Shown here: positions 1,975 through 31,956 of the stretch, one piece after another | Numbering within the stretch: position 1 is the stretch's first letter | How the letters are laid out: every line of letters starts with the position of its first letter | Assembly (NCBI GenBank): GCA_017309115.1 | Contig: JAFLEF010000023.1 | Coordinates: forward strand, 23,502 to 87,501 | Length of the DNA stretch: 64,000 nt | Direction: 5' to 3' | Source of the DNA: Verrucomicrobiota bacterium | Lineage (GTDB): Bacteria; Verrucomicrobiota; Verrucomicrobiia; Limisphaerales; UBA9464 | Notes under the pieces: model-generated | Told to the model about the DNA's origin: nothing | Database searches by the model: none | Seen by the model: only the letters and a program-made list of their open reading frames with translations | Program-made: the position numbers and the translations under genes

Positions 1975-3183
1975 ATGCAGCCCAGTATTTTCAGAATGGT
2001 CATCACGGCCGTGGCACTCCTGGCGGGGTGTGGGGTGCGTGCGTGGGGAAATCAGGATCTTCTTCCCTTAATCTTCCGAACCGGCGCGGAGGTCACCCTG
2101 CAACAGGGAGGAATTTCCTTCTCCTATTCGTCAGGATTGGTTCCAGAACGGCTGGAGTTCGCGTTTGGCTTTGCCTCCACAGACGTGGAAGAGGGTGGGT
2201 TCTTTCTGGATTCCGCGAGTTTGCTGCTGCGGCCGTCGGGAGCGGACAGCACGGTGCTGGTGACGGCGGATGTCAGCGGGACGGAATGGGTTCCGCCGAG
2301 TGATCTGGGACCGCCGCCGACGCTGACGCTGGCGATTCAGCCCCGGACATTCCCGGAGGAATGGGGCTCCGGCTACACCACCCGGGTGGCGTACTCGGTG
2401 AGTCTGGAACTGCCCGAAGCCTTCCGGCGTCAGTCGCTGTCGCTCACCCTGCAACTGTTCGACAATGGCGATCGGCGGAACTCCCTCGCCTTCCTGGACG
2501 ACGTGTTGGCAACCCCGGAACCCCCGTTCATCGAACTGCGTTCTTCCGCGTTCCCGTTGGGTCCGTTCGCCCGGGAATGGCTGGCCCGGCATGATCCGGT
2601 CTTGCGCACCTTTCGGATCGATCGGCCGGATCGCGCCCGGTTTTTCTGCCTGCGGTCGGATGCGGCGGTCACCCTGAAGATGCTCTCCCCGGGTCCCGAC
2701 GTGTGTCAGTTCAGTTACACCTTTGCGAGTCCAACGGTGGAACTTTTGGGAGGGGCTTCCGTAGCGGGTCCGTTCGATCTGGTGACGAACGCGGTGATGG
2801 ATCTCACCAACCGGGTGATTCGGGTGCCGGCGAATCAGGCGCAGCGTTACTTCCGGCTGAACGGCAACGTGCGGGCGCGGTTGGTGACGCCGGAATTGGA
2901 AGGGGAAACGTTGGTGTTCCGCTTCGTTTACTCCCCGCCGGTCTTTGCCCTGCAATCCAGCGTGGATGTCTGCGGCCCGTACGCGGACGAGCCGTTGACC
3001 CAATGGGATCCGACGCGGCAGCTCCTGACCGTCCCTCTGGAGGCCGCGCGGTTTTACCGAATTCGTTCCGCCGGCCAGCCGGAGCTGGAAGCCCTGCCGG
3101 TCTACTGGGAGGGCCAATCCCTGGTGATTCCATACCGACCGGTGGCGGCGGGGTTGAACTGGTCGCTGAGCTTGGAACCATGA
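1975..3183 (+). CDS. Lipoprotein of unknown function; its C-terminal half is three tandem ~40-45-aa '...FYR' modules. First gene of the giant operon
   Basis: Signal peptide with lipobox MVITAVALLAGC. Three tandem modules end in RFFCLRS (about 2527-2660), RYFRLNG (2737-2866) and RFYRIRS (2947-3069). The TGA stop at 3181-3183 overlaps the ATG of the next gene at 3180-3182. Confidence 0.75.
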   Translation: MQPSIFRMVITAVALLAGCGVRAWGNQDLLPLIFRTGAEVTLQQGGISFSYSSGLVPERLEFAFGFASTDVEEGGFFLDSASLLLRPSGADSTVLVTADVSGTEWVPPSDLGPPPTLTLAIQPRTFPEEWGSGYTTRVAYSVSLELPEAFRRQSLSLTLQLFDNGDRRNSLAFLDDVLATPEPPFIELRSSAFPLGPFAREWLARHDPVLRTFRIDRPDRARFFCLRSDAAVTLKMLSPGPDVCQFSYTFASPTVELLGGASVAGPFDLVTNAVMDLTNRVIRVPANQAQRYFRLNGNVRARLVTPELEGETLVFRFVYSPPVFALQSSVDVCGPYADEPLTQWDPTRQLLTVPLEAARFYRIRSAGQPELEALPVYWEGQSLVIPYRPVAAGLNWSLSLEP

Positions 3184-6100
3184 GCCCACTTGTTTCCCAA
3201 CTTGGCCGATTCCTTCGGTGTTTCCTTGCGCGAACCTGCTGGTGGCTGGGCTGGCTGCTGGCGGTAGGCGCCGGGGCTCTAACGGCTCGGGCCCAGGAAC
3301 GAACCTTCACGCTTGACGGTGGGAAGGTCGTGCTGACCGACGTTTCGGACCGGGCCACGGTGCTGGTGCGGTCGCTGCGGTATCTGCCCGAACGGCGGGT
3401 CTGGAATGCCAGTCTGCTGGTTCGCAACGCCGGTTCCATCCCGCTCCGCGGACCGATTGTGGTGGTCGCGGAATCGTGGACCGGAACCTCCGGGCCTCGG
3501 CAGACCGACACTTCGGCGGGCAGCGGGGAGCCGGAGTTTTGGCGGGTTAGTCCGGGGCCTTTGGGGACCAACGAGTTGACCGTTCCTCGATTGATCGTCT
3601 TGGGCGCGGAGGGAACGGTGGCGCCTCAGGTTCGCTGGAAGGTCTATGCGGGTCAGGCGCCAGTGGAATCTCCAGGGCTGGGATTCACTCGAACGCTGAC
3701 CGCGACGGGATTGCCGCTGGGCGAGGTCACCGTCACTCAACTCCAGCCTTCAGTTGGACCCGGGCGAGTGACGGAGGCTGAGAGTGGTGTGGTTTCTGTG
3801 AACGGTCCCCCGGGATCCTATCGGCTCCGGTTTGATCGGCCTGGATTCCTCTCGTCCTTTGCCGTGGCGCAACTTTCGGCGGGCGGATTGACGCTGATCC
3901 CCAATCCCCGGCTGACCCCGCGGGATCTGACATCCGTGGAGTTGGCGCCGGGGGCGGTGCTGGCCTCGGCGGACGGGGTGGTGGAACTCACGGTAGATCC
4001 TGGCGCGCCGCCTCCGAATGGACAGCGCGCGACCCTGACCGTGTTCCCGGAGCAGGCGCTGCCGGCTCCGTTGCCGGTGGGCTGGAGTCCGCTGGCGGCC
4101 TGGTCCTGGGAACCCGAGCGGGCCACTGCGGCGCGGGCGCGGGTCCGGCTGGGAGTCCGCGGCGTGGCGGCGGGAACGGTAGTTCCGGTGACGCTGAAGT
4201 CGGACGGGCGGTGGTTGCTCCGGGGTGAAGCCTTGACGGTGGATTCGGCGGGCGTGGTGGTTCTGACCCTGAACGAAAGCGAGCGGGTCGCGGTGGTGGT
4301 GCCGGATGCGGGCGGGTCGTTGCCCGCGGCGGGAACGGAGTTGCCGGCGGGATCAACGCCAGTGCCGACGCCGGATCAGTTGGTGGTGACCAGTCGGGTG
4401 GAACCTCCGGTGGTGGCGGCGAGCACCAACGCCACGTTGGTGACTGCCCAGGCGGAACTTACGGTGAGCAACCGATCCGGTGCGTTGCCCAGCGGAGGCG
4501 TGTTGCGGTTGGAGATTTCGGAACAGTACGAATTGACGGACGGAAGTCGGCGGACCCCACCTCGGTATGAAACCTTCGTTCGGGTGTTCCGTCGTCCGGA
4601 CGCCACGAATGCAGCCGTGGGGTTCGCGACGTTTCCGCTCCGGCCCCTACTGCTGTTCCCGGGCGACCAACTGCAGAGCGCGACCGTGACGGTGGAGGTC
4701 CTCGCTCCGGCGGACTTTGCGGGCGGACGTCTTGTTCCTGGCGGCAGTTACACGAACGGCGGATTTCGGGTCGTGAGTCAGTTGGGAGACTTGGCTGAGC
4801 CTCAGGCGATCCTTCTGGAACCGTTGGGATTGGCTGGCGAAGCCGTTCCTGGGCAACGCGTGCTAACCGACCTGGAATTGACCGGCGGCATTCCCCGAGC
4901 GGCGTTTGAACTGCACCTGGGTGGGGTCACTCCGGGCCGGCGGCTGGGACTTCAGGTCGACCGGGAACTTCCCGACGGCGAATACGTGCTGCTGCAACTG
5001 CGTTCTCGAGGAACGGAGTTGGAACTTCAGCCCCGCGAACGGCTGATCCGGCGCAACGGCGAATTTCAATCGGCCGAAGGTTCGGGCTCGCCGGCGCCGG
5101 GCCTTGCGGGCTCGGGTCAGTTTGTGGTGGTGCAGGTTCCCGGGCCGTTGGAATGGGTGACGGGTCAGGTCGAGGACGCCGGAGCCAGTCGGACGAATCT
5201 GCCGGTCACCGTGACGGGCCAACCCTGGGTGGTGTTCACGGATGCGACCGGTCGGTTTCTGACCCTGGCTCCAGCGGGTTCGGTGGAGGTGGCGGTTCGC
5301 GATTCCGGTTCGGCCCGCAGCGCGTTTCGAACTCTAGCGGTGGTGGCGGGTGTGGCCCCGGCTCCGGTGACGCTGGCCTTGGCTTTGGAAGCGCCGCGGG
5401 TGCTGACGGCGTTTCCGGCGGACGGCGCGGTGGGCGTGGATCGCCTGGTGGCGCCCAAGCTAACGCTGAGCCGTCCGTTGCGGGCCTCGTCGGTGAACGC
5501 GGGAACCGTGGTGCTCCGGGGGACCAATGGCGCCGTGATTCCGGCGCGGATCACCTTGGAGTCCGGGAATACGGTTCTGCGGGTCTACCCTGCGGAACCC
5601 CTCGCCGGCGAAACGCAGTTCACCCTGGAGTTGGCGGCGAGCATTGCGGACGACGCTGGAACGGGCCTGACGGGTCGCCGGCAGTTCTCGTTCGTCACGG
5701 TCAGCACGCCTTGGGTCCGTCCGCCGGGAGCGCAGTTGTATTCGTGGGTGCCGACCAACGGAGTGGCGCGGATCGTCGGGACCGAAGGTCTGGCGCCGCC
5801 GGGATTCCCGGTGATCTTCGTCAACGACACCACTGGGGAAACCGCTACCAGCACGGCGGGTCGGGGAGGGGAGTTCGAGCAAACGATCCCGGCTTGGTTG
5901 GAAGATCGGTTGCGGCTGGTGTTCGTAAATGCGGATGGCACCCGCAGTGAACTGGCGGTGGGTCAGCAGCGGTTCCCGGATGGCAGCGTGGCGTTCTACA
6001 GCGAAGGCGGGACCCTGACGGCGACCAATCTGGCGTCGGAATTACGAGAACTTCGGCTGGAAGTTCCGCCGGGCGCAGTGTCCGGCCGAACCCGGTTCAG

Positions 6101-9100
6101 ACTCGAGCCCCGACCGCTTCTGGACGCCGAAGTCCTCACATCCAACACCCCGCCGGCAGACGCGCAGGCGCTGGGCTTCTTCCGCCTGGAGATTGAGGGC
6201 GATCCGCTGCGGGAACCGGTGCGACTGATCTTCAAGGACCTCGACTTGGATCGGCTCCAACCGCCCGCGGGCCGAACGGTGGACGACATTCCCCTGGTGG
6301 TGGGGGCGCCGACGTGGGTGGACGAAGCGATTGGCGGAACGCCCACCCGAACGTTGGGTTATCGGTATCTGGGACAAGTGGTGCCGCTCACCAACGCGGT
6401 GGCTGCTTCAGGTCGGGTGGGCCGCCAGAGCATTCTGGCGGGAGGCGTGCTGACCTTCGCCGGGAGCGGCAATCTGTCAGCAATGCTGTTCGGCCCGATC
6501 ATCTGGTCCAAGATGGAGGTGGCCGGCAAGGTGTTCTCGGCCGATCTCAGCCAGGGACCGGTGCCGGTGGCGGGCAGCGAAGTGCCCTTGGCCGGAGCAG
6601 TGGTGCGGGGGCGGAGTCGGTCGAATCTGAGTTCGATTCCGTTCTCCCTCCAGCCGGGCGAGATCTACACGCTGAGCGATGCCAATGGCTTTTTCGCATT
6701 TCTGGCGCCGGCGAATTATCAGTCCGGGGCAATCACGCCGTTGTTACAGGGCTACTCGTTGAACGCGACGCATCCGGCGTTCCCGGGGCAGATGGCCGGC
6801 AGTCATGGACGGGCGAGCGTGTATGATCCGTCGCATCCGTTTGGCGGTGGCACCATTCTCTTCGATCGCACCCGACCTGCCGACACCCAGCCCCCGTCGA
6901 TCTTTGCCTCGCACGTTCCGGGATTGCCGGCCGTGTCGGAGCGGATTCGATTCACGGCCACGGCGAGTGATCCGGGCGGGATCGCGAGTCTGGTGGCCCT
7001 GACGGATTCGGTGAATCCGTTCAACGCGGTGGTGAACCTTCGATCGGCGGGTTCGGGGATTTGGGAACTGACGTCCGATCGCCCGGCCAAGGTCGTGCTT
7101 CGGGTGGAAGCGGTGGATGGTTATGGCAACCGGGCGACACGCACGCATGCGATTCTGGTTGGTCAGCCGCCTTCGGCGCCACCGACGGTGAATGATCCTG
7201 CGGGTCCGTTGGTGGTGGGCGCTGAACCGGATGCCGGCGCCCTCGGGGTCAGTCCGGCGACCGTGATTCAGCTGCAGTTCAGCGAGGAGTTGGATGACGG
7301 CATTCGGACCAATGCGGCCTTGTTCCTCACGTTGTCGCCGTCGGCCTGGACGCTCACCAGCGAGTTCGGCCGGAGTCGGCGCGACGTGGTGGTGCGGGTG
7401 CCGGGATTGCGGCCGGACACGGATTACACGCTGACCGTGCAGGGTGTTCGCGATTTGAGCGGTCAGGTGCTCGATCAAAATCCGGCGACGAATTCGCCGG
7501 CCGCCGAACCGTTCGTTTTGAATTTCCGCACCGCTCCGGAGCTGAGCGAAGTGCTGCCAGGAATCACGGAAGGCGGCGGGGCGTTGATTCGGGGAGCGTA
7601 TGCGTTTGTGTTGGATCGGCAGAGGCAGTCGCCCCAGTTGGTGGTGTTTGATATCTCCGTTCCTTCGCGGCCCGTCCGGGTCTACAGCCGTCCGTTGCCG
7701 GGTCCGCCCCGGGCCATGGTGTTGATTCCGGACTATGACTTTGCGACGTCGTTCGTGGACCTCCACCAACCGGATCCGAATCAGCCCGTGGGAATTCGTC
7801 GGGGCAACTTGTTGGCGGTGGCGGGCCAGTTGAGTGGCGCGACCACCAGTTATCTGCGCGTGCTGGATCTCGGGGGTTTGCCCGACGATGTGCCGACTCT
7901 CGCGGGGAATGTGTTGAGTATCGATCCGACGTCCCTGATCACCCGGTTGGATTGGTCGCCACCGTATCTGTTGGCGGTGGAAAACAGCAGCGAGGCGCCT
8001 TCGCTGCATGTGCTGAATTTGCAGGCGGTAATTCTGGGTCAGGCATTGACGGACTTCTCTCGGCAGTTTGCCCGGGCCTATTTACCCGCGCCGCCGGTGA
8101 TCTATCCCGAGCGCGCCGTGCCTGCGGTGGATGCCAATCAGGACGGGGACTTCGTCGATCCGGGCGACTCGTTGCCGGTGCCGGGACTCGACACGGTGGG
8201 CTCGGTGGCGGGCGAGGTGTCGTTGCTGACCCTGATGCCGAACCGCCGAGGAGCCAACGGAGGCGAACTGGTTCTGGTGCGGTCGCCCCGGTTCGTGACT
8301 GACGCGTTTATCGACGGGCCGGCAGGTTACTTGGGAGCGTTGACCACACCGGGGGCGGACACTGTGGTGGAGTTCACCTCGGCGCCGGTGTCGACCAATC
8401 GGGTGGATCATTCCACCGAATTTCGATCGTTCCTGGTCGGTCAGAATCTGTCAGAGACAGCGTCAGTTTCCTTTCCGGAGTTTTATCCGAAACGGGCCGT
8501 GCCGGTGATGGTGTTCGGTCGGCGGTTGGTCCTGGTGAATCTGTTGAGTCTGGACAACCAGACCAATCGGATCTGCGTTCTCGATACGACCCAAGCGGAA
8601 TCACCGGTGAAGTTGGCGGATGTGGATCTGCCGCAGTCCGAGTTCGGCGTGTTGCAGGGCGCGGTGCTCGATGAACGCGGGCGCATCGTGCTTTCGACAG
8701 TGACGACGAACGGGGAGAATTTTGTCCTCCTGGATCCGACGCGCTTCCTGGATCCGGTGGTGCCGGGGGCGATTCATCCGGCGGTGCTCGGCGTGATCCC
8801 GGGCGCGGGTGGCGGAGTGACGTCGTTCGGAGTGATTCCGGGCGGCACAAGTGTGGCGAGCTTGCGCGGGGTAAATGTGGTGGCGCAGACCGCCCCGGTG
8901 ATTCGCTTGGTCCAGGCTACCACCAATTCCCTGTCCGCGTTTGACGAGCCGGATCTGACGAATCGGTTGGCGGAACTGCGTTCCCTGGCGGACGTCGAGT
9001 TCCTGCCGGTGGCGCGTCATGGCACCAATATTTCCGATCTGCTCCCGGCCAATCCCGCTCGACATTTCCATCTGTGGGTGGAGGCGCCGGGTGGGGCTGG

Positions 9101-12100
9101 TCGGGAATTGGAGGTGACGGCGCTGAGTTTGGATGCCGCGGGTTTTGTGGTCGTGCGCACCAATGGCGCAGCGCCACCTGCGGTGCTGCGGGCGGTTCCC
9201 TTGCGTCGGCTGACGTCCGATCCCCGTTCGCCGGCGTTCAACACGTTCTTGTCCCGTCCACTGGCCTTGCTGGCGGAGGATCTTCCCCTCACCGAGGCCA
9301 ATGCTGTTCAAGCGGCGTTGCGACGCCACTTGCTCTTTGCCGGAACCCGACTGCGGGTGGGGTTCAGCGAAGAACTGTTCGCGAATCCCGCCCTGAGTGA
9401 CTTCGCCGGAGCGGGCCGGATCACGGTGGCGGTACCGACGAACACCTTGCCGCCGCGGCTGGGCGTGGCGCTCGGTCGGCCGGTGCTGGACTTGCAGCCG
9501 CGACTGGAAGCGGACGATACGTTGGTGATCCGGACGGTGGTGGATGCCGTGAACACCAATGCGTGTCCGGGATCGGCCTATCTGAGCTTCGGCCACACCG
9601 TGAACTGCCGGATTTCAATGTTCGTGGACGGTCAGCCCGCGCGCAATTTGTACGATGATCAGGGCCGGTTCTACGCGATCTTCACCAACGTTCCGTCCGC
9701 CGCCGGATTCCATCAGATCCTACTGGATGCCGCGGCCGTAGGGGACCCGGGACGGCACACGTTTGAACTGGTGGGAACGCAGTTCGACGGTTCTGAACCG
9801 CAAGTGACCTTGTCGGAATCCGGCGTTGTGGAGCATGAAGTGGAGATCCACCACAACTTCCCGGTTGGCCACACGATCATTCAGGGTGTGGACCTGTGGG
9901 ACGGCCATCTCACCCACAGCCGGCAGGACGTCGCGGTTCCCGGTCGCAAGCTCGCCCTCGATTTTTCGCGAACCTATTCCAATAGCGGCAACAGCTCCGC
10001 GGGACCGCTCGGCGGCGGTTGGACGCACAATTATCACATCCGGCTCGAGCAGCGTTGTGGCGTCTGGACGGTCATTGGCGGCGAAGGGACGGGCAACGCC
10101 TTCACACAACCCCAACCCGATGCCGCGAAGCTGGGCCGTTATGCCCGCTTCCTGCCGGCGGCGCGGGGGCAGTATGAATTTTTCCAACCGCAGGTGGGTT
10201 ATCACTCCGTGCTGGTGCGGGATACGGATCGGACTTCGGAGGCCTGGTTCTTCACGAAGTCGGCCGTGCGTTATCACTTTGTCAGCGACGGCTCCAGCAG
10301 CACGCCTTCCGCCACGGTGTATCGGCTGCGGTCCATCCGGGAGCCGAACGGCAATGAACTCCGCCTGAACTATCAGGACAACGACTCCAATCCGGCGACC
10401 CTCGATACGGTGACGGAGTATGAACCAACGGGCGTGCCGAAGCGCGGGTTCCGGTTCCAGTACCGCGTCATTGCCGGCGAAGACCGCTTGGTGAACCTCC
10501 GCGGATTCAATCAACAGGGCAGTCCTGATCTGCTCGGACTGGAGATTCGTTACGCCTATGACGAGTGGGGCAATCTGACGAACGTCACGCGGTGGGGCGG
10601 TTCCCCGGCGGAATCACGGACGGACTCCTACACGTACACTCCGGGATTTGAAGGTCCGACGACGCACAATCTGCTGACGTGGACCGATCCGAACGGTGCG
10701 GTCACGCAGTACGAGTACTTCCCGGCCGGTGCGGCGGGATACTATGCGATGAGCAGCCTGCTCGAGGGCGCTCCCCCGCACGAAACCGTTCGCAGCATTA
10801 CTCGTCTGGGAACCGCGCGGCCCGGCTTTGCGGCGACGGATGATTCTGTGACCCGGTTCGCCTACGACTTTGCCGGAGGAACCCGGCGGGTGTCGGATCC
10901 TCGGACAGGACTGACCGTTCCTGACACCGTGTACACGCTCAACGCGTACGGTGCGACGGTGCGGATTGAGGCGCCGCTGGGTCAGACCACCCTGCTGGAA
11001 TGGGCGACCGATCATCGGAATGGCGCGGTTCGCAACGAGGCGGGTCAGGCGGTGAACGACGTCGTGCTGACCCGGAAGGTGGACGCCGAGGGACAGGAAG
11101 TCCGCTACGAGTATCACGATGGTCGGGGCAACGTAACGCGGGAGATCACCACGGTGGCGCCGGGCAAACGGGCGGTCTTCGATTCCCAGGGCCGGACAGT
11201 GACGGTGTCCGAGCTCGTCCAGACGTATCATCCGGTTTTCAACTTTCCGGAAACCGTGGTGGATGCCGAAGGGCACTCCAGTCGGTTCGAGTTGGACCCG
11301 GCCACGGGGAATCTGCTGCGCAGCACCGATGGCGTCGGCAGTGTCACCGTCTTCGAGTACTACCCGAACGGCGACGTACAAATTCGACGCGACCCGCGCG
11401 GATTTGAAACGCGCTTTGTTCGGTATGATCCGTATGGCAATGCCGAGCTGATCGTCGACGCCGAGGGAAACGAGATCAGCAACCAATACGATGAACGCAG
11501 CCGGCTTCGTGAGACCCGCGATACGTTCACGCATCATCGCACGTTTGCCTACGACGCCTTGGATCGATTGGTGGCGGAGACCCAGGAGAACGACTTGAGC
11601 GGTTTGGCCACCGGACCCGGCAGTCGGACGGGCACCGGTTATTTGCCGGGAGGCCAAGTGCAGGTTCAGACCAACGCCCTTGGATTGGTCAGCCGCACCG
11701 AATACGATGCCCTGAATCGCCGGGTCCGGATGACCCAGGTGGCGGTTCCGCAAGGGGATGGCAGCCGGGTCGATTACGTTCAGACCTGGCAGTATGACGT
11801 CGCGGGCAACGTGGTGGCTGAAGTGGATTTCCGGAATGTCCGGCGGGAACATCGGTACGATGCGTTGAACCGGCGGGATCGAACGACGCTTTCCGGACCG
11901 CACGGGGGTCCGTTCAACGCGGATGGCGTTCTGTCCCGAATCACTTTCGACCGGATCAACAACGTTCTTGAGGAGATTAATCATCAGGGGTTGACCAATC
12001 GCTACGCCTACGACGGATTGCATCGGTTGGCGGAACAGACCCTTCCGTTGCCGGGAGCCGTCCTCCGAACCGATCGGGACCGTTTGGGAAATGTCCTCGT

Positions 12101-19700: not shown

Positions 19701-22700
19701 TGTTGAAGGTGTATCAGGCGAATCGCTTTCCGCGGGATCAGTTGGAGGCGCTGGCGGCTTCGCCCGACACGCGCGCGGCTTTGCTGGAGGCGTTCAATGT
19801 CGGCGAGTTCGGTCAGGCGGTGGTGGCGGTGGAGGGGTTGGATCGCGCGGTGTACCAGGACTTAGTTCCGCAGGGAGGCGCGCGGGATCAGAGCGAGCTC
19901 TCCGTGGTCCTGCGGTTTCGCGGTCGGGGAACGGTGACTGGCATCGTGCGCGACGAGCGCGGGGCGCCGTTGTCGGGCGCGGCGGTGAATCTGTTTCCGG
20001 ACACGGATTCCCGCGAGAAGGGCCGGGGAATCCTGAGCGGGCCGGATGGTTCCTTCCGGTTTGACGGTGTGCCGCTGGGTCGCTTTTCGATTGAAGCGTC
20101 CACCGGGGATCAGCGGCTGCGGGTTGTGGATGGTCGCCTAGAGACCTTGGGGCAAACGGTGGATCTGGAGTTGGTTGTGCCGGACACGCGACTCGCGTTT
20201 GGATCGCTGAACGGACAGGTCCTGGAGGCCGACGGGACGCCGCATGCCCAGGCGCGGGTGTACGTGGTGCAGGACCTCAATGCTGGATCTCCGCGGGGCA
20301 TTCTCGCGGAGGCGATCACGGACGAGGACGGCTACTGGCGTGCGGATCGGGTGTTGGCGACCAACCGCGTGGGGGTTGTCGCGCTCTCCCGCGATTCTCA
20401 GCGCAAAGCGGTGCGGGCAGGGGTTCAGCTGAATGTGGACGGCGAAGGCTTCCTGACCCTGGAACTGGAGAGCCTGGCCACGGTTCGCGGAATCGTTCGC
20501 TACGCTGATGGCCAACCCGCGGCGCGGGCGAAGGTCGGCGGAGGCGACGCCGTGGTGCGCACGGATGCGCGGGGCGAGTTTCTGCTGACGGGAGTTCCCG
20601 CGGGTCTGCGTTCCGTGGTGGCGGGTCTGGATGCGCCGGATTCGCGCGATGGCGTCACGCGCCTGACGGGAACCACGCTTACCGTAACGGCGGGTCAGGA
20701 CAACTTCGTCGATCTTCGGCTGCCCGCCCGAGGCAAGATTACGGGCCGCATTCTCAATGTGGCGGGCGAGCCCGTGCCGAACATCCGTGTGGCGATTCCA
20801 ATGGCCGACGGCTTCGCCTGGGTCAACGCCAACACCCGGGGCGAATTCGTCTTCGATGCCTGGCCCATCGGACGCTATATCGTGAGCGCTCCCTCGCCGC
20901 CGGTGAAGGTGAAGCCGGACGAACTAGCGGAGCGTGCCCTGAGTGCGCTTCAGGGAAGTGACGGCCGGAATATGTCCGCCGAGGCCGCCGCCCTGGTCGG
21001 GGAACTGGCGAACATTTATGCGCAGGGCACCATGGGCCGATTCAGTAGTCCGAACTTCGTGCCCACCACCTGGGGCTTCAACGAAGTGGAGCTGTTGAAC
21101 GACGGAGGCACGGCGTTTGTGGAGGTTCAGATGTTGCCCGGCGCGTCGGTCAGCGGAACCGTGGTGAACTCCCAGGGCGTGCCGATTGGCGCGAACGTCA
21201 AGGTGTTCGCCTTTGGCCCGAGCAAGACGGGCGGTCCTCTAGTCGAGGAGCGCGGGGAGATGGTCAGCGATCCGGGTACCGGCGAATTCCGCTTCACCGG
21301 ATTTCTCACCGGGCCGATCCGGCTGGAAGCGACGTCGCCGCTGCTGGTGGGTCGCGCGCAGTATGAAGATTACCTCGAGCCGGAATCTCCCATCCGGACT
21401 GGAGTCACGCTGACGTTCCCGGCCCAGGCGGCGACGACCGGCCGACTGATGGGGCAAGTGACTTCCGCGGAAGGAACGCCGGTCCCGGACGCGGAGGTGG
21501 CGATCAGTTTTTCCTCCGACTACGCGATTCGCACCGACACTAACGGCGTCTTCGACACACAGATTCGCTTGCCGGTCGCCTACTATTTCGTGACGGCGAA
21601 GGCGGACGGCAACGTGGGCCAGACGACGGTTCAATTGGTGGGAGGTATCACTAATTTTGCCGCGGTTCGGTTACTGGGCCGAGGTGATCTGGTGGTGGAG
21701 GTGCAGAATCTGGATGGAACCCCGGCGACGGGGGCGGAGGTGAAAGTCGTCGGCTGGGATTTTCCGCGGGAAGAATACTCGTTTGAGAGCGTCGATGGTT
21801 TCGGTCGGCGGACGTTGATGGGATTGGCCGAAGGTGAGTATGTGCTGGAGGCTAAGCAACTGACCGGCACTTTGGTGGAGTTCGTACGCGGAGCAGTGAA
21901 GGTGAGTCGGGGTCAGGAGTCCCGGGTTCAACTGCGGTTTGGTCCAACGGGTTCGGTGCGGGGACAGTTTGTGGAACGACTCACGCAGGTGCCGATCTCT
22001 GGTGCGCAGGTGTGGTTGCGGAATCCTGCCGGCTTGGCGGTGGCCAGTGCTCCGACCGGGGCGGATGGTCGGTTCGAACTGACGTCGTTGCCGTTGGCAA
22101 CGTATCAGCTGGTCTCGCGAAATCCGGTGAACGGCCGGCTTGGTTCGGCGACGGTGGCGGTAACTCCCGAGAATTCTGCGCCATCGGTGGTGTTGGTGGA
22201 ACAGGCCCTTGGGGAAGTACGGGGTATCGTGAGAGATTCGTCGGGAACCAATCCGGCGGTGGGAGTCCGGGTCACGTTGAGTCCTACCGATCGGCTGTTT
22301 GAAAGCCGGCAGGTGACGACTGGGCCGGACGGGGAGTTTCAGTTTCCGGGCGTTCCATTGGGCTCCTTTGAGGTTCAGGCCGTCCTGGGGCTGGCGGGTC
22401 CGCAATCCCGGGCGCAGGCCCTGCTCGCCTCCGAGACCGAACCTTTGATTCTCGATTTGGCCTTACCGCTGACGGGTAGTCTCGACATCACAGTTCTGCG
22501 TCCGGACGGGGTTTCACCCGCCACCAACGCCTCCGTGGTGCTGCGGTTGTTTGACGGGCCCCGACGATTTGATACGGACGCGCAGGGCCGCGTGCGGTTT
22601 GGGGACGTGCCTCTGGGCAACTGGACGGTGCGGGCGAATTCCGAGGTGCCAGGCGAAACCCGGAGTCAGGCGGTTAGGGATGTTGCCCTCAGTTTGGAAC

Positions 22701-25700
22701 GGCGGCAGATCCCGCTCACTCTGGTGTTGCCTGGAGTGGGTCGGGTGCAGGGCGAGGTGCGCAATAGCGACAACTCAATTCCCACATCCGCGGTGCGCCT
22801 GGATGTGCGGTTCCTGACAGTCGGGGGTGGCGGCGATACGGTGACGGTGCTGACGGATTCCTCGGGTCGGTTCGCGGTGCCGGATGCCCGGCTCGGGGAC
22901 TTCAGTGTGACCGCTTCCCTGAACGCGCTGGCGGCAACTGCCGGCGGGCGGTTGGACGCGGATGGCGACGTGGAGTCGGTGACCTTGCGACTTGCCGCCA
23001 ACGGGGTGGTGAGCGGACGATTGCTCAGCGCCACCGGAGCCGAACTGCGTGGGGCGGACATTTTGCTGACGTTCCCGTCCCAGACCGCCTTCCCCGGGCG
23101 GGTGCTAGTGCGGACCGATGCTCAAGCGGAGTTTCGCGCCGAAGGCGTTCCGATTGGTGTTCCCGTGGTGGTGACGGCGAATGTCGCTTCGCTGAACGGA
23201 CTCCTGCGCCGGACGGTGCGCTTGACGCAGGACGGTCAGGTGCTGGCGTTGGGCGATCTGCGGCTTGATGAGGAACCGCCCACCGTGGTGCAGATTCTGC
23301 CGCCGGACGGTTCGATGGAGTTTCTGGAAACGGAATCCGTGCGGGTGGATTTCAGTGAGGCGCTGGATCCGGACAGCGTGACCCCGGAGGCCCTTTATCT
23401 CGTGCAAGGCACCAACCGGGTGGCGAGCGATGTGACGCTGGAGAGTTTGGCGACGGGATCGCGGGTTGTGTTGCAACCAGACGAACCCCTGGCCAGCGCG
23501 ACGCAGTACTCTGTGGTTGTTCTCGGCGGGAATCGGGTGGGACCCAACGGCCAGTTGTTGCGGACGGGCGTGAAGGACGGCGTGGATCGGTTGCTGGTGG
23601 AGACCGTCACGTCCTCCTTCACCACTCGGGACTTCCTTCCGCCCGGCCTTCTGTCGGCGTTCCCGGCGGATGAGGCCGTCGAGATTGATCCTCAAGCGGT
23701 GGTTCGGTTGGAGTTCGATGAAGCGGTTCGCACGAACGGCTATCAGGTGGTGGTGCGCGGGCCGGCGGGTCCGATTCCGGGTGAGTCGCAGGTCAGTGCC
23801 AGTCGGCGGTTGGTGGTGTTCAGTCCCGCGGTGGAGTTGCCGGTCAACGCCCGGTTCACCGTGGAGGTCAGCGGAGTTCGCGATGCTGCGGGGAATGTAA
23901 CCCCCAACTTCACCAACCGCTTCACCACGCTCGACACGTTGGCGCCGGCGGTGGCGAATTTGCGACTGGCGGCGGGTCAGCGCGCGGTGGCGGGAGCCAC
24001 GGTGTTGGTTGAGGCGGTGTTGGATTCGACCGAAACGAATGCCGCGGTCCGCTTCAAGCTCGATGGCGTGGAGGTCGGCGTGGCCCTGATCGGACCGGTG
24101 TTCCGCTGGCCGGTGCGGCTGCCCGGTTCCGGGACGGCGGTGGTTTCCGCCACGGGTCTGGATTCCCGCGGCAACTCCGGCAGCGAAGCCGAGTTGATCC
24201 TGCCCTTGGTCGCCAACGATGCGCCCTCGGTGGCTTTGCGGCGCGGTCCGCTGGAATCAGGTCCGGTGCGTACCGGACGATCCTTCAGCGTGGTGGTCGA
24301 AGCGACCGATGATGCCCGTGTGGCGGGAACCGTGCTGACTCTGACGGGAGCCCTGACCAATCGCTGGGAACTGGGCGGTGGGACCAACACCGTGGTGGTG
24401 ACCCTGCCGGCGGAAGCGGTGTCCGGGCCGGCATTTGAGTTTCGCGCCACGGCCTTCGATGAACTCGGGGCGCGTTCGACGGAAGCGCTTCTCGCGGTTC
24501 CCACCACGGATGCAACGCTCCCGGGACTCGTCTGGAACGGGCCGCCGGCGGGAACCCGGTTGGATCCGCGGAATCCGTTCCCGTTGGACTTGGAAGTTCG
24601 GGACAACAGCGGGGCAGTGAACGTGCAGTCCACGCTGAGGTATCGAAACGGAGTTCTCACGAATCTGACCGCATCCGTCGTGCTCGTGCCCAATGTTTCC
24701 CAGTCGGTGCGACTGGAGGCGAATCTGGCGGGGGCGGAGGACGGCGGAACGTTGGAGGTGGATCTGACGGTGACGGATGCCGCCGGAAACGTCGCGCGCC
24801 AATCGCTCAGCTATTCGGTGCGGGGTGTGCGTGGTCCCAAGCTGGTGCAGATTCGCAACTCGGCCGGCACGTTGCTGCCAACGACCAACGTCGTTTCACC
24901 GTGGATCTCGTTTTTGATTTTCGACTTCGACCGGTCACTGGCGCCGACGAATTTGGTGGATCAGTTGGTCCTGACCAATGACCTGGGCGAACCCATCGCG
25001 TTCACGCCGGTCCTGACGGCGAATACGATCCAGTGTCAGCTCAATGGAGCTTCCCTGCCGCCCGGATCGGAAGTGACGGCCATTCTGCGACCCGGACTGA
25101 CCGATGCCAGTGGCAATGAAACGCAACTCGCCGACGGCCGAGCGTTTCCGCCCGAGGGAGTCAGCGTGACGTTCCCCGTGGCGCGGTTCTTGGGTTTGAA
25201 ACCGGATTCCGGCCGAAGGGTGGTTCCTGGGCAGACGCTGGTGTTGGACTTGACCCAGGATCGCGCTCTGGATCTGGTTGAAGTGCGCCTGAATGGTGAA
25301 CGGATGCCGGTGCGAACCGTGAATGGTGAGGTTCACCGGTATCCAGCACGGTTGTCGGAGCAGGCGACCAACGCTCAGGTCACGGTGATCACGGTCCAAC
25401 CGGGCCGGCCGCCGCGACTGCTGGCGCAAGCGGATTATGTGGTCGTGCCGCGAGACGGGGATTCCGATGGGGACGGGCTGCCCAATGGTTGGGAGGCGGA
25501 CCGTTCTTTCGTGAACGATGCGATTCGTTTCGATCCCGCGGATCCAGCGGACGCCCGGGCCAACTTTGACTCGGACGCCTTGGATAATCTGACGGAGTTC
25601 CAGTTGGGCACCGATCCCTTCCGGGTGGACACCGATGGTGACGGTCTCTGGGACCATCAGGAGTCGCTGGAACCGAATGGCTGTCCGAGTCCGCTGGTGG

Positions 25701-28700
25701 CCGACAGCGATGGCGATGGTACCAATGACCGGTTTGATTTTGATGCGTGTGATCCCCAGGAGAGTCTGACGGTGAGTCCCCTGGCGCTCACCGTTTCGGA
25801 GGGAACCGCCACGACCAACGCCCTGACCCTGCGTCTGGTGAATCTGGGTTCCCCGTCCCTCCGGTTCGACCCGGCGTTCCCGCGACCAGACTGGGCCCAG
25901 TTGCTCGACTCCAGTTCGCCCAACACCAACGTGTCCACCTGGCGACTGCGCCTGGGTCCTTCCTTCAGTGACGCCGGAGATTACTCCCTGCGCTTGCGGG
26001 CGACGGCGTCCCGGGCTTTGGGACAGGTGGAGTTTCCGGTGGAAGTGTTGGTTCGGGTGCAGAATGTGACCAACGTTCCGGTGACCCGCTGGCGTTCACC
26101 GGTCAGTGGTCGGTGGCAGGATGCCTCCGCGTGGAGCGACGGGGTTCCGGATGTGGGACGTCAGGCCGTCATTGACGTTCCCGGGACCTACACCGTCTCG
26201 GTGGATGTCGGCGGGCTGGCGTCGGGATTGCAGGTGGGCGGACCGGGCGCAGCGGTGACGCTGAATCTGGTGTCGGGGACCCTAACGCTGAACGACGACG
26301 CCACGATTCATCCCGGTTCGGTGCTGCGGAGTCAGAATGGTGGCTTGGACGGGCAGGGTGATCTTCGCGTGGCGGGTCGAATGGAGTGGTCGACCAGCGC
26401 GTTGGCCGGATCCGGACGCCTCCTGATTGAACCTGGTGGCGAGATGGAGACGCGGTCGGGCACGCTGTCGCTCTTCCGTTCGTTGGAAAATGCGGGAACG
26501 CTGCGGTTGGCGGACGGACTCACCCTGTGGCTGGAAGGATCCACCCTGACGAATCGCGGCGATCTGTTGCTGGAGAACTCGGGTCAGATTTGGTTCCGCA
26601 GTTCGTTGAACCGCGAGCAGGTGGTGAATGAAGGACGGATGCAGAAGACCGGGGCCGGCGAGTTCACTCTGAACAGCCTGCCATTCCATCAGCACGGGCG
26701 TCTGGAAGTGATGGCCGGAACACTGACGAGCACGGGCGGGGGCGTGCACAGCACCACCAATGTCCTGCCGGCGGGCGCGACGTTGCGGTTGGGCGGACGG
26801 AATCCGGCCAGTCCATTGGTGTGGACTCCGGAGAGTGCGTGGTCGGGGGCGGGACGTTTCGAGTTCGTGGGGTCTAGCAATCTGGTGCTCGGCTCGTTTC
26901 AGCCCACTGGTCTGGTGGAGTTCGCGGCCACCTCCACCCGGCTGGCGCGTTCGATCGTTCCTCCCTTGGCAGCCACGTTCAGCTTTGGGCTAACGCACTT
27001 CGCACAGGATCAGGTGCTGACCAATAGCGTCGCCTCGGCGTCGAGCACGATCCTGACGGACGGCGAGTTGAGCGTGGTGGGCCGCTTGCAGTCGGCGTCA
27101 GGAACGTTTGGGGGAACCGGTCGGTTGCGGATTGCGCCCGGGGGCAGTTGGGTCGTGAACGGGGATTCGATTGTGCAGTTGTCCTGTCAGGTGGAAAACG
27201 AGGGAGCGGTCGAAATTCTGGACGGCGGCGATCTGCGGCTGAATGGCGTGACGCTCGTCAATCGCGGGGAGTTCACCACCCGAGGTGAGGCGACGATCTG
27301 GTGGCAGACGGTCTTCGCGGAAAACCGATTCGAGAACGAGGGACGGTTCCGTCAGTTGGGCGGCGGACAGGTCTCCTTCCGCCTGGTTCCCTTCCATCAT
27401 CGCGGCGAATTAGAACTCACCGGAAGCCTGTTCCTGGACGAGGGGGGCGCCAACCACAGTCGCCTCGAAGTGCCAGCCGGAGTGACGCTCGTCCTGGGGG
27501 ATTCGATGGAATACGGGGCAGGTTCGTTTCTGGGGGGGGCGGGAACGATTCGGTTCGATCAGGGCAATCACATCTTGTCGGGCGGGTTTGAGCCGACGGG
27601 TTCGGTGATCTGGAATGGCGGAACGGTAACGGTGAACGAGACCCCAGCGTCCCCGTATGCGGCTTCCTTCAACTCCGGTCGGTCCGTTTTCGGCGCTCCA
27701 CAGCGGCTGCGCAGTGCCTCCTTTGCCGGCGCGACGGTCGAGGGAGCCGATCTCGAGGTGGAGGGAGATCTCCAATTGCGGTCCGGGGCTCTGCTGGGGC
27801 CGGGTCGGGTGACCACGACCACCAATTCCACGGTGCGCGTGGAGAGTTCGGTGCGCACGACCCTTTCCACGCTCGGGCGGACGCTCCTGACGCGGGGTCC
27901 GGTATTGTGTGCCACCAACGCCTGGGTGCGGTTTCAAGGAGGACGCTGGGAGAACGAAAGTCGCTTTGAAGTGCCGGCGGGCCTCCGTCTGGACTCCTTC
28001 GGGGGAACCAACGGATTTGTGAATCGGGGGGTGTTCGAGCAAAGCGGATCCAACACAGTGGAGATCACGGGCGTGGCGGTGGAGAACACCGGACCCTGGC
28101 TGCTGACGGGCGGTTCGCTGACCCTGGCCGGCGGCGGCACCAACTCGGTTCCCTGGAACATTCCGGCAGGAATGCCGTTGTCGCTCGGGGGACGTTGGCT
28201 CCAGTTGGCTCCGCTCACCGCCCGTGGTCCGGTTCAGTTCACGGCGGGAGTTCAGCAGTGGAACGCGCCCTTCCAAAATGTCGGAAGTCTGCGCGTCGAT
28301 TCCGGTGCCGAAGTCTTCTGGACCGCGGGACTGACCAACGACGGCTCGGTGACGGTGCTGGGCACGATGGTCGCCGGAACGCCGTCGTTGGTTCGGCAGA
28401 TGATCCTGCAGCAAGGCGAGCTCCGGGCCGAGGCGCCGTTGACGATTACCGAAGAGTTTCGGTGGCTCTCCGGGACCCTTGCCGGAGCGGGCGGAGTTCA
28501 TTTGGCCGCCACCGGTTTGGGCGAAGTCAGTGGCAACGGACTGGCCAGCCTTCGCGGTCTGTTCTCCAGCGCGGGCACCGTTACCCTCACCAACACCGCG
28601 TCGGTCCAGTTCCGTAATGGCACTTGGAGGAATGAACCCTCCGGCACGGTGATCCTGCGCAGTTCTGGAAGTTTCCTGGGATTTGGTTCGACCACCAATC

Positions 28701-29560: not shown

Positions 29561-31923
29561 GAACTCGAGTTGGGATCCGGGAGGGGAAAGGCGCGCCAAC
29601 CCTCCGGCCTGTAGGCGTGGCAGGCGCCACCATCGAGAGCGAACAAATGGATCCAACCGTGATCGAAGAGTTGGCGGACCCCTGGGTTTGCGCTCAGAAC
29701 GGCGGCGATCCGATCTCTGGGAGCCTCGATGAACACGGACAACCGGCGCGGTTCGTGCATGAACTGGTTGCCGTTGTGCAAGGATTGCAGCGGAAGTCCC
29801 ACCTTGAGGTCGCCGGTGTTTCCTTCGAGCACCCCCAGTCCGCCGACCACGTTATGCAGAACCTTGTTCCCGCTCCCATAACGTTGGGGATCCACGCGCG
29901 AGGCGTAGTATTGCAGATTGATCCAGCTCGCGACGACCACCGGCGCGCTGAGTATCAGGGTCAGCACCCGATCCTCTGGGTCGAGTTCCGAGCGGTAGTC
30001 GTGGAGGAACACCCGACCCTGCAGATTGAGCTGGGCGGTCCGGTAGCGAGGAGCGGCGATCAGCGCCGCGTTGTTGGCCAAGCCCCATTCCGGCCGGACT
30101 TGGGAGATGTCCGTTCCGCGGTCTCGAATTCGCTCGTCCAATTCCCAGCTTGAGGCTGTGAAACAGCCCAGGTCCTGAGCTCGCTCTCGGCGCGTAGCAG
30201 ACCCAGCGGCGGCGAGTGCGTCCTGCAGGAGGGTCAGTTCCTCATGATGCGTGGTCGGAACCGCTTCGGCGAACAGGGTGACATCATCCGAAGTCGTGTT
30301 GTGAAGTCCGGCGAGGAAGTGGGTGTCGTCCGGAATGTCGATGCCCCGTTGCCGCAAGCCTTGGCGTACGTCGGGCTGATTCAGGGTGGTGGCCGCGAGC
30401 CGGGCGTTGACGTCGCCGGCATGACCGCCACAAGCGCCGCAGTCTAATCCCGAAGCGTAGGGGTTGTTGGCACTCTGGCTGCCATGACCACAGATCAGCA
30501 CGAGTCGAGAGAATCCACCCGTGAGGCTCATGTTCCGTAGGGCGCCTTCGGCCAGGGCTAGGCGGGTCGGGAGGGACTGCTCAGCAGGGAGAGAAAGCGC
30601 CGGAGCCACAGGACCGCAAGTGGGCTGGATCCGACTTCGCGTTCGTCCCAAAGCGGCACCGAACGTCAGCCCCAGAGTTTCGACAAAGGAGAAGCAGGAG
30701 GCGGCCGAGTTCTGGAAGGCTTTCCAAGCCTCCTTTTCCCGGTGGCCAACGCTGAGTTGAGCCTGCTCCTCTGGACTAAGGGGTTCCGTGGAAGTCACCG
30801 GTGGCACGAGGAGTGCCGGGCAGCGGGCGCCAACCGAATCCGTGTGGGTCGCATGGTGGCTGACAGGGAATCCGAAGAAGCCGGCGAACCCCAGGGTTTG
30901 AATGCCCGGGAACTCATATTCCAGGTGCCGTCGAAACACCTCGGAGCGGACGTCGATGCAGAAAATGGCTTGCGCCGTAGGGCGTGTTTTAAAGGGCGTG
31001 AGGTTCTGTCGGACAAGTCGAAGGGCCAGGTCGCGTTGAAATCCCAGTTCATAGGCCTGTTGCCAACGAACCAAAGCCGCGACCACCTCCCGCGACGGGG
31101 CAGATTCGGACGGATCCGCGGGAGGCGGGGAAAACGCGTGGTGAAGCGCCGCGTCATAGGCGAGGCGGATGGCGAGCAGGTCCCGCAAAAGGGTGTTGGA
31201 TTTTCCCCGGAGCTGATCCTCCCGGACGCGGTACTGAAGGTGCCCGGCCCAGCCGGAAATGGTGGCCAGTTGCCGATGGAGGAATTCAGCGATCGGGATG
31301 TTCTGAGGTTGAATGATCTCGAGACAGACCCGGATGCATTCGGCGGCGTCTTCCGGTAGATTGCCGACAAAATTCCGGAAGCCCGTGAGGCCAAAGGTCT
31401 CGGGAGCATGGTCCCAGCGGGCGGCCTCCCGCCAGGCGCGATAAAGTTCCTGCTCCCGCCAAGGGGAACGCCAGGCGGCTTGGTTTTCGTCAAACTGAAC
31501 CGCACACCACTTGGAGATTTCCTCAATTACGAACTGTCCCCAATGAGCTCCCGGCCTCTGTCGATCCAGCCGATCGGCGACGGTTGGGATAGGTCGGCTT
31601 TCCCGGGAACCCGCTTGCTCCAGCGCTTCCCGCAGGCGATCGGGGGTCCATTCCGCGTCGCTCACGGCCGCGAGATCGGTGGGTGAGATGACCCCGCTTT
31701 TCCACGCTTCGAGGTAATCTTGGGCGGATTGCAGAGGGATCGCGCCCGTAACCCGGTCCAGAAGGGTGCACGCGGACGTGAAGGGTAGGCCGGTCAATCC
31801 GAGGAAGGGATTGACCGCGACGAAATGGCGTAATGGCCAGAGCGGTGGAATTCGGCTCTGAGCCTCCTCGCTGGCGGCGTGAACGGAGGCGGCATCAAGG
31901 TGGGGCGAAGGAATCAGGCTCAT
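29533..31923 (-). CDS. dabA: DabA (DUF2309/UPF0753), the beta-carbonic-anhydrase-like subunit of the DAB inorganic carbon pump
   Basis: N-terminal PLWPLRHFVAVNPFLG and internal SGLDCGACGGHAGDVNARLAATTLN are DUF2309 hallmarks. About 800 aa, directly downstream of a NuoL/ND5-like gene. Its 3' end overlaps the convergent giant gene by 28 nt. Confidence 0.85.
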   Translation of the reverse strand: MSLIPSPHLDAASVHAASEEAQSRIPPLWPLRHFVAVNPFLGLTGLPFTSACTLLDRVTGAIPLQSAQDYLEAWKSGVISPTDLAAVSDAEWTPDRLREALEQAGSRESRPIPTVADRLDRQRPGAHWGQFVIEEISKWCAVQFDENQAAWRSPWREQELYRAWREAARWDHAPETFGLTGFRNFVGNLPEDAAECIRVCLEIIQPQNIPIAEFLHRQLATISGWAGHLQYRVREDQLRGKSNTLLRDLLAIRLAYDAALHHAFSPPPADPSESAPSREVVAALVRWQQAYELGFQRDLALRLVRQNLTPFKTRPTAQAIFCIDVRSEVFRRHLEYEFPGIQTLGFAGFFGFPVSHHATHTDSVGARCPALLVPPVTSTEPLSPEEQAQLSVGHREKEAWKAFQNSAASCFSFVETLGLTFGAALGRTRSRIQPTCGPVAPALSLPAEQSLPTRLALAEGALRNMSLTGGFSRLVLICGHGSQSANNPYASGLDCGACGGHAGDVNARLAATTLNQPDVRQGLRQRGIDIPDDTHFLAGLHNTTSDDVTLFAEAVPTTHHEELTLLQDALAAAGSATRRERAQDLGCFTASSWELDERIRDRGTDISQVRPEWGLANNAALIAAPRYRTAQLNLQGRVFLHDYRSELDPEDRVLTLILSAPVVVASWINLQYYASRVDPQRYGSGNKVLHNVVGGLGVLEGNTGDLKVGLPLQSLHNGNQFMHEPRRLSVFIEAPRDRIAAVLSANPGVRQLFDHGWIHLFALDGGACHAYRPEGWRAFPLPDPNSSSHSPTETTR

Positions 31924-31956
31924 GTAGGTTGGCAGATGAAAGGTGGGACGTGAGAA

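Follow-up and report, generated by a model that had tools for sequence, protein, structure and literature searches.

What is a small secreted protein, encoded directly in front of a giant RHS gene, doing with three copies of a module that also closes unrelated secreted proteins? The question is raised by the gene at 1975-3183 (+ strand) of a 64,000-nucleotide (nt) stretch of contig JAFLEF010000023.1 from a Verrucomicrobiota bacterium (assembly GCA_017309115.1, positions 23,502 to 87,501 of the forward strand); this whole stretch is called the window here. The open reading frame (ORF) gives a product of 402 amino acids (aa), and the interval 2527-3069, in which a model reading the letters alone (the sequence-only reading) had noticed repeated segments, lies in frame with it. 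The product is built of a signal peptide with a lipobox, an N-terminal domain (N-domain) of about 150 aa and three tandem modules of 68-70 aa. In this study, we describe the module as a previously undescribed family of domains that follows a clear rule of position and exists in two permuted forms; in kind, it resembles known C-terminal sorting and anchoring domains. The features of the small gene and its partner are the following:

1975-2031, + strand: signal peptide with lipobox (MQPSIFRMVITAVALLAG followed by C), read from the translation
2062-2520, + strand: all-beta N-domain (aa ~30-182), from alignments and AlphaFold2, with a predicted local distance difference test score (pLDDT) mostly >90
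2521-2730, + strand: module 1 (aa 183-252), core 'IELRSS..GPF...RTFRI...RFFCLRS' then hairpin, from hidden Markov model (HMM) and repeat statistics
2731-2934, + strand: module 2 (aa 253-320), from HMM and repeat statistics
2935-3144, + strand: module 3 (aa 321-390), from HMM and repeat statistics, and modelled alone with AlphaFold2
3145-3183, + strand: C-terminal extension of 12 aa and stop codon, the stop overlapping the RHS start
3180-16724, + strand: RHS partner gene for a 4,514-aa signal-peptide protein, from Pfam, blastp and synteny

The three repeats align over 68-70 aa (together nt 2521-3144). The tandem copies of the sequence-only reading are thus real and significant repeats, but the unit is longer than the 40-45 aa proposed there, because a conserved beta-hairpin trails each '...GP[FY]...FYR' core. 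The consensus of the core is '..LQSS..V.GP[YF]..E......RT.TVP.....RF[YF]R[IL]RS', followed by the hairpin '...I..IR..GD.L.I.YE'. Pairwise Smith-Waterman scores among the repeats are 47-69, as against 21-23 ± 4 for 2000 shuffles (z 6.9-10.7), none of which scored as high, and the family HMM finds each of the copies with a domain E-value of about 1e-19 to 1e-24. These statistics, together with 188 matches at E <= 1e-10 in an exhaustive search, bear out the view that the similarity of the modules is more than compositional. Across the family, differentiation of the modules by position (1-3) is weak. AlphaFold2 predicts the whole small protein (47-sequence alignment) to be all-beta, with a mean pLDDT of 87.9 and a predicted template-modelling score (pTM) of 0.72; in the C-terminal extension (aa 394-402) the pLDDT falls below 50, and the majority of family members terminate at the module end or at most three residues past it. 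Module 3 alone (85-sequence alignment) is modelled with seven strands at a pLDDT of 90.5. On these models, the repeat unit is a previously undescribed, independently folding, seven-strand beta domain of ~66-70 residues.

In searches of the domain and structure collections the module, for which the sequence-only reading had no assigned function, matches no characterised domain. Pfam-A and NCBIfam gave no family for the small protein, the tails of other proteins in the window that are discussed below or the C-termini of other module hosts, even at E <= 1, and 47 family members run against Pfam gave only three stray sub-significant matches, none of them relevant. Sequence searches of the PDB with the small protein, as a single sequence and as a profile, found no match. 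Foldseek found no neighbour at E <= 1e-3 for the whole model against the PDB or for the module against the PDB and BFVD, a null which, given the limited sensitivity of Foldseek for 70-residue domains, is absence of evidence and no proof of a new fold. The best PDB match of the module had E 0.79, template-modelling scores stayed at or below 0.5, and no type IX secretion system (T9SS) C-terminal domain (CTD), immunoglobulin (Ig) or fibronectin type III entry stood among the top matches; the whole model showed only weak jelly-roll/lectin and tandem-Ig resemblances. A literature search found no description of the module.

A word-indexed search with the small protein returned nine relatives only. 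An exhaustive profile search with 20 module copies against 1.84 billion protein representatives returned 544 proteins at E <= 1e-3, of which 188 reached E <= 1e-10. The best ~80 matches show the whole architecture, N-domain plus three or four modules, in about 390-490 aa, and the family comprises at least 48 full-length clusters at 50% identity; the cluster names of the matches carry no annotation. The genome-level matches are metagenome-assembled genomes (MAGs) of Verrucomicrobiota (subdivision 3 / Limisphaerales), and every organism label encountered among module carriers is likewise Verrucomicrobiota (subdivision 3 / Limisphaerales-type). The window sequence itself is present in activated-sludge, wastewater and biofilm metagenome runs. 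A longer variant of ~690 aa, with an extra N-terminal region before three modules, is found at L007 (930-3005), L008 (3289-5361) and in P0077, where the extra region holds DUF11 repeats. Long proteins with a repeated 'YDG' motif, outside the window, form a false-positive class that reaches E of about 1e-13 with the module HMM: P0120 and P0152, with 11 and 8 matching stretches, were considered as long module arrays and rejected, being unrelated repeats whose weak matches had been summed.

The positional rule is most evident where the module occurs once. Among 150 listed matches, 68 have a single copy; in 47 of these the last module residue is the end of the protein, and in 63 it lies within four residues of the end. 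This position is not an effect of contig truncation, because truncation would cut the profile at random positions, and at L010 and L011 the DNA reads from the module straight into a stop codon. The single-copy hosts typically end '...VVITY[EQ]', the conserved terminus being '..[VI][VIL][IL]TY[EQ]-COOH'. Their other domains are unrelated and of extracellular type (alkaline phosphatase with He_PIG, Kelch with HYR, NHL propeller with cadherin-like, CBM6/CBM35 with Big_7, DUF11), and signal peptides are visible in the full-length hosts inspected. The claim that the module is elsewhere a C-terminal tag on signal-peptide proteins is therefore well founded, and the strongest evidence for it comes from outside the window.

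Within the window, three further proteins had been said to end in the same pattern. The coordinates first given for these tails were approximate and out of frame, and the corrected features are:

47102-47347, + strand: tail of the LamG/DUF6851/VCPO-like (haloperoxidase-like) protein, read as a permuted, hairpin-first form of the module, from hhalign against the permuted module profile
44323-44538, + strand: tail of the S8 peptidase/PD40/TSP3 protein, read as the same permuted form, from hhalign against the haloperoxidase-tail family and from HMM
29375-29557, + strand: tail of the second giant protein (16721-29560), with motif-level likeness only, from '..VRW..Y.VE.SSDL..W....FYRV' and hhalign

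The module HMM, also in extended and permuted versions and with up to 278 copies, gave no significant match to the three tails among the six-frame ORFs of the window; its best non-self match there was the haloperoxidase-like tail, at E of about 0.3, and a word-indexed search with an alignment of the three tails gave one match only. Against a module profile re-cut to start with the hairpin and to end in FYRxRS, the three-tail alignment scored 31.8 over 68 columns (probability 89%), column shuffles giving 9.0 ± 1.9 with a maximum of 17.7. For the haloperoxidase-like tail an independent profile was built: the same tail occurs in 113 of the 120 best VCPO-like orthologues, where it ends '[KR]F[FY]RVSASLAP'. 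Aligned to the permuted module profile with hhalign, 99 VCPO-like tails reach a probability of 96.9% (E 1.5e-10, score 50.7, 69 columns), about 18 standard deviations above column shuffles (9.9 ± 2.2, maximum 15.1), whereas in the ordinary register only a 48-column core aligns, with a score of 39.4. The N-terminal hairpin of the tails compared with the C-terminal hairpin of the module scores 15.2 as against 5.6 ± 1.3, with none of 200 shuffles as high, a comparison to be read with the caveat that amphipathic hairpins are generic. In the reverse direction, the haloperoxidase-tail HMM finds the tri-module proteins with E-values reaching 6e-17, and among the window ORFs it picks up the S8 tail at E 0.007 and module 3 at E 0.02. 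The S8 tail aligns to the haloperoxidase-tail family at 93.4% (E 2.5e-7, 71 columns); for the tail of the second giant the same comparison gives 15.7% (E 0.0017), and no HMM finds it.

Judged from these profile comparisons, the haloperoxidase-like and S8 tails are best described as remote homologues of the module in circularly permuted order, hairpin plus core instead of core plus hairpin. The earlier claim holds for these two tails, through profile methods only; the second giant's tail resembles the module in its motif only. Both permuted forms are found at the very end of secreted proteins that are unrelated in their other parts. An array of tandem copies, as in the small protein, is the kind of intermediate that could release a permuted unit by excision, and the two permuted forms together with the tandem-repeat family make a candidate case of circular permutation by duplication.

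The haloperoxidase-like host (44630-47350) is a secreted protein with LamG, DUF6851 and VCPO-like (vanadium haloperoxidase / PAP2-type) domains; its 120 best orthologues (P0165-P0284) are mostly labelled Verrucomicrobiota MAGs. In the S8 host (39484-44541; 1,685 aa), the S8 peptidase is combined with a fervidolysin-like prodomain and PD40 beta-propeller repeats, and bacterial TSP3 (Ca-binding) repeats stand immediately in front of the tail. Its Pfam matches above the cut-off are Peptidase_S8, PD40, TSP3_bac and Fervidolysin_NPro-like, with two sub-threshold propeller matches; the tail is empty and does not match PF04151. The two tail-bearing proteins and the tri-module protein all lie within one 64-kb window.

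The second part of the question concerns the partner of the small protein. The sequence-only reading saw tight coupling of the small gene to the RHS gene, and the coupling is confirmed: the TGA of the small gene overlaps the ATG of the RHS gene in the ATGA at 3180-3183, and a giant ORF follows the homologue in all loci with downstream DNA, intact in eight (the window, L001 and L003-L008) and fragmented in L002, with start and stop codons usually overlapping at the junction. The RHS protein shows, in order, a conserved N-terminal region of ~2,100 aa that includes CarboxypepD_reg and Big_5 (about aa 660-870), DUF6531, an RHS shell and an unannotated C-terminal region of ~670 aa. Its Pfam matches (RHS_repeat at 1.5e-85 in 11 stretches, DUF6531 at 6e-12) are those of an RHS/YD-repeat polymorphic toxin. 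The C-terminal 674 aa (window 14700-16721), the presumed toxin region, have no Pfam match, and no small immunity-like ORF follows the RHS gene; instead, the gene of a 4,279-aa protein starts by an ATGA overlap at 16721-16724. By blastp, the giants of L001 and L003-L008 are homologous to the window RHS protein only over the first ~2,050-2,100 residues; identity is 28-42% for the divergent loci and rises to 85% for L004, a near relative. Pfam identifies the payload behind this carrier as RHS for the giants of the window, L001 and L006, and as an LCAT-like lipase with PKD for that of L007. Thus, the small-protein gene directly precedes, and is translationally coupled to, the gene of a giant Sec-dependent polymorphic protein, here an RHS-encased toxin. 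The ~690-aa variant in L007 and L008 is paired with a giant gene as well, the lipase payload having been found in L007, the one of the two that was scanned. A carrier with a swappable C-terminal payload is an architecture of polymorphic-toxin type; we found no description of this carrier.

In its signal peptide, DUF6531, RHS shell and variable C-terminal region, the partner resembles the Sec-dependent RHS/YD polymorphic toxins of WapA type, from which it differs in that its carrier of ~2,100 aa also bears a non-RHS lipase payload. Zhang et al. 2012 (PMC3482391) place RHS toxins with signal peptides under general-secretory ('T2SS') trafficking. Neither a literature search nor the PMC3482391 text, as far as the terms 'verrucomicrobia' and 'lipoprotein' lead into it, yielded an upstream partner of RHS toxins made of a jelly-roll-like domain and modules. 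Known Rhs accessory families (EagR/DUF1795 chaperones, VgrG/PAAR, TpsB-type transporters) had no Pfam match in the window protein or the 47 family members scanned.

The sequence-only reading had further suggested that the small protein might be a receptor or co-assembly partner through strand pairing between modules. Such pairing with the RHS protein is not supported, because the module HMM finds no module in the RHS protein among the window ORFs, the giants share only their N-terminal ~2,100 aa, and the number of modules in the small protein varies, from zero (L006) through one (L005) to three or four in the others, while the N-domain is always kept. The N-domain, with its motifs LEFxFGFAT.E, FLDSFSLTLQ and LDLFDNGN..SLAFLD, is the invariant part of the family; it occurs without any module in L006 and next to just one in L005. 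By Foldseek it shows only weak jelly-roll/lectin resemblances (PNGase F, PL7 lyase, legume lectin, MAM; E 2e-3 to 7e-2). This distribution suggests that it is the N-domain which is matched to the giant's conserved carrier region, with the modules supplying a separate, generic function.

The small protein had also been called an operon-leading lipoprotein. Its lipobox (LLAG followed by C, aa 16-19) predicts a lipoprotein, and the gene, with the end of the TauE gene 185 nt upstream, is plausibly the first of a three-gene unit of ~27.6 kb, so that for the window protein the description may stand. It does not extend to the family: the pattern [LVI][ASTVI][GAS]C ending a signal peptide is found in three of 48 listed full-length members, namely the window protein and its close relatives P0001 and P0002. 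It has no match in the remaining 45, most of which show, as judged by eye, a hydrophobic, signal-peptide-like N-terminus. A pattern scan around the small gene gave no promoter and no informative terminator. A 235-nt leaf-litter metatranscriptome contig of a related organism covers window 3113-3346, the stop/start overlap of the small and RHS genes, with five mismatches, and it weakly suggests co-transcription of the two genes in that relative.

How can a domain that is strictly terminal in some proteins and tandem in others be explained? The reading we tentatively favour, while giving it somewhat less than even chances, is that the module is a lineage-specific address, a surface-retention or sorting module, and that the N-domain binds the giant protein. 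The module would retain its fusion partners at one shared site in the envelope or on the surface, probably through a cell-surface component to which it binds; the N-domain of the small protein would bind the conserved N-terminal region of the giant, and the three modules, aided in this lineage by the predicted lipid anchor, would tether or present the giant at the cell surface. Variable tandem copies combined with terminal single-copy use are the behaviour of the anchoring modules SLH, LysM and CWB2, which likewise occur as a terminal unit on diverse exoproteins or in two to four tandem copies, with copy number varying among orthologues; the module differs from them in having no sequence or fold relationship to them and in being hosted by a diderm Verrucomicrobiota organism. 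The motif '[RK]F[FY]R', in which basic and aromatic residues are conserved, would be compatible with a ligand site. Three points weigh against this proposal. The strict C-terminal position on many secreted proteins suits an export signal equally well; the case for an interaction between N-domain and giant protein is one of synteny; and the taxonomic restriction is drawn from five MAG loci and the source names on VCPO-like orthologues, which do not amount to a census.

The first of these points leads to the alternative of a C-terminal secretion or sorting signal, read and possibly cleaved by an outer-membrane export or attachment machine, with the tri-module protein as cargo, shuttle or adaptor serving the giant. 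We consider this possible, if rather unlikely. It would account for the extreme C-terminal position and conserved '..TY[EQ]-COOH' end, for cargo that is diverse and carries signal peptides, for a distribution that appears lineage-restricted and for the high density in the window of the S8 and VCPO-like tails and the tri-module protein. Two to four tandem internal copies are, however, unusual for cleaved export signals, the order of the parts should be constrained if the signal were read from a specific terminal strand, whereas two permuted forms are tolerated at C-termini, and no candidate machinery adjoins any locus examined, that of the single-copy host L010 included. An anchoring or binding domain is thus a better fit than a cleaved export signal, because of the tandem internal copies with their variable number and because of the tolerance of two permuted orders.

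The sequence-only reading had named the T9SS CTD and PEP-CTERM as possible counterparts, and as an analogy this remains viable, while membership in either class fails. Like the module, the T9SS CTD (type A, TIGR04183/PF18962 Por_Secre_tail, Bacteroidota; ~70-100 aa) is a small all-beta C-terminal domain on unrelated signal-peptide proteins of one phylum, and in position, the extreme C-terminus of signal-peptide proteins, the 63 of 68 single-copy modules agree with it. The modules, the three tails and the single-copy hosts have no match to the CTD HMMs even at E <= 1; the Ig-like seven-strand sandwich superposable on solved CTDs is not recovered by Foldseek; and, unlike the CTD, the module occurs in tandem internal copies and two permuted orders. 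T9SS is not known from the host phylum, and none of its machinery (PorK/L/M/N, SprA, PorU/V) was noted among the genes inspected in the 64-kb window or in the loci with flanks of up to 10 kb. A PEP-CTERM/exosortase signal has a PEP motif, a hydrophobic transmembrane helix and a basic cluster; the module proteins end '...VVITY[EQ]' or '...FFRVSASLAP', with no helix, and PF07589 and TIGR02595 gave no match. PPC (PF04151) resembles the module as a beta domain of ~70 aa that ends secreted hydrolases, S8 peptidases among them, but the module has no Pfam match and its host range is far wider than peptidases.

The same terminal position combined with tandem multiplicity is typical of carbohydrate-binding modules (CBMs), and the module might accordingly bind a carbohydrate or other substrate, targeting enzymes to a polymer or to prey or target cells, the small protein being a lectin-like adhesin that helps the RHS toxin to engage its targets. 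Several hosts also carry CBM6/35 or lectin-like domains, and the N-domain weakly resembles lectin/jelly-roll folds. We nevertheless regard this as unlikely, as no CBM family is matched, the protease, phosphatase, haloperoxidase and propeller hosts have no common substrate, and the top single-copy matches are almost never internal or N-terminal, CBMs being positionally freer.

A bolder form of the export idea, which we hold to be quite unlikely, takes the module as the recognition or attachment domain of an unrecognised, Verrucomicrobiota-specific outer-membrane pathway for the export or display of folded proteins, a counterpart of the T9SS CTD. The protein made of N-domain and three modules would then be an adaptor loading giant toxins with RHS or lipase payloads, and the permuted forms would imply that the fold is recognised and not a terminal peptide.

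Homotypic docking seems improbable. The small protein would here be a scaffold akin to that of the cohesin-dockerin system, and its three modules would receive the C-terminal modules of enzymes by edge-strand pairing. As in that system, a C-terminal tag on enzymes meets a repeated module on a scaffold-like signal-peptide protein, and the pTM of the four-domain model suggests that modules pack together. In the present case, however, tag and repeat are one domain type, there are no Ca-binding dockerin repeats and docking is hypothetical; moreover, the tightly coupled RHS partner has no module, family members with no module or one are still paired with giant genes, and the linkage of the tri-module gene is with giant toxin-like genes and not with genes for enzymes. 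Finally, a compositional or generic beta-strand likeness without common origin, to which the failure of the module HMM alone to find the in-window tails, the merely motif-like tail of the giant and the generic hairpin pattern would point, is hardly credible in view of the repeat z of 7-11, the number of highly significant matches, the reciprocal detection by the haloperoxidase-tail HMM and the hhalign scores far above column-shuffled nulls, and it is rejected for the lipoprotein repeats as well as for both permuted tails, leaving the giant's tail as the only place where it may apply.

It is poorly understood how Verrucomicrobiota and other bacteria of the Planctomycetes-Verrucomicrobia-Chlamydiae (PVC) group export and display their very large sets of secreted enzymes and giant proteins. 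A domain that the searched libraries lack, and that stands right at the C-terminus in hundreds of protein clusters whose extracellular functions are unrelated, offers a handle on this question. It could be used to predict the surface and secreted proteome of uncultured Limisphaerales-type bacteria and to seek the cognate machinery or ligand by phylogenetic profiling, and it could be tested as a display tag. The gene of N-domain and modules, with its conserved pairing to a ~2,100-aa carrier of swappable payloads, also adds a new accessory gene to one class of polymorphic toxins that depend on Sec.

Other genes of the window complete the picture of its surroundings. The second giant secreted protein (16721-29560; 4,279 aa) has six CarboxypepD_reg stretches and two Big_5 domains, and it gave no blastp alignment of more than 150 residues with the N-terminal carrier of the RHS protein. 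At 29536-33489 (- strand) and 33568-34482 (+ strand) lie a dabA (PF10070, E 3.5e-248) and dabB-like (Proton_antipo_M) pair for inorganic-carbon uptake and, next to it, a divergently oriented ORF whose helix-turn-helix-like N-terminus, by the look of its sequence, would fit a LysR-type regulator. Two further genes are consistent with the PVC/Verrucomicrobiota assignment: one encodes a hybrid sensor kinase with a Y_Y_Y domain (54132-58019, - strand), the other a PSCyt2/PSD1 (DUF1549/DUF1553) protein of a kind typical for Planctomycetes and Verrucomicrobia (62109-63944, + strand).

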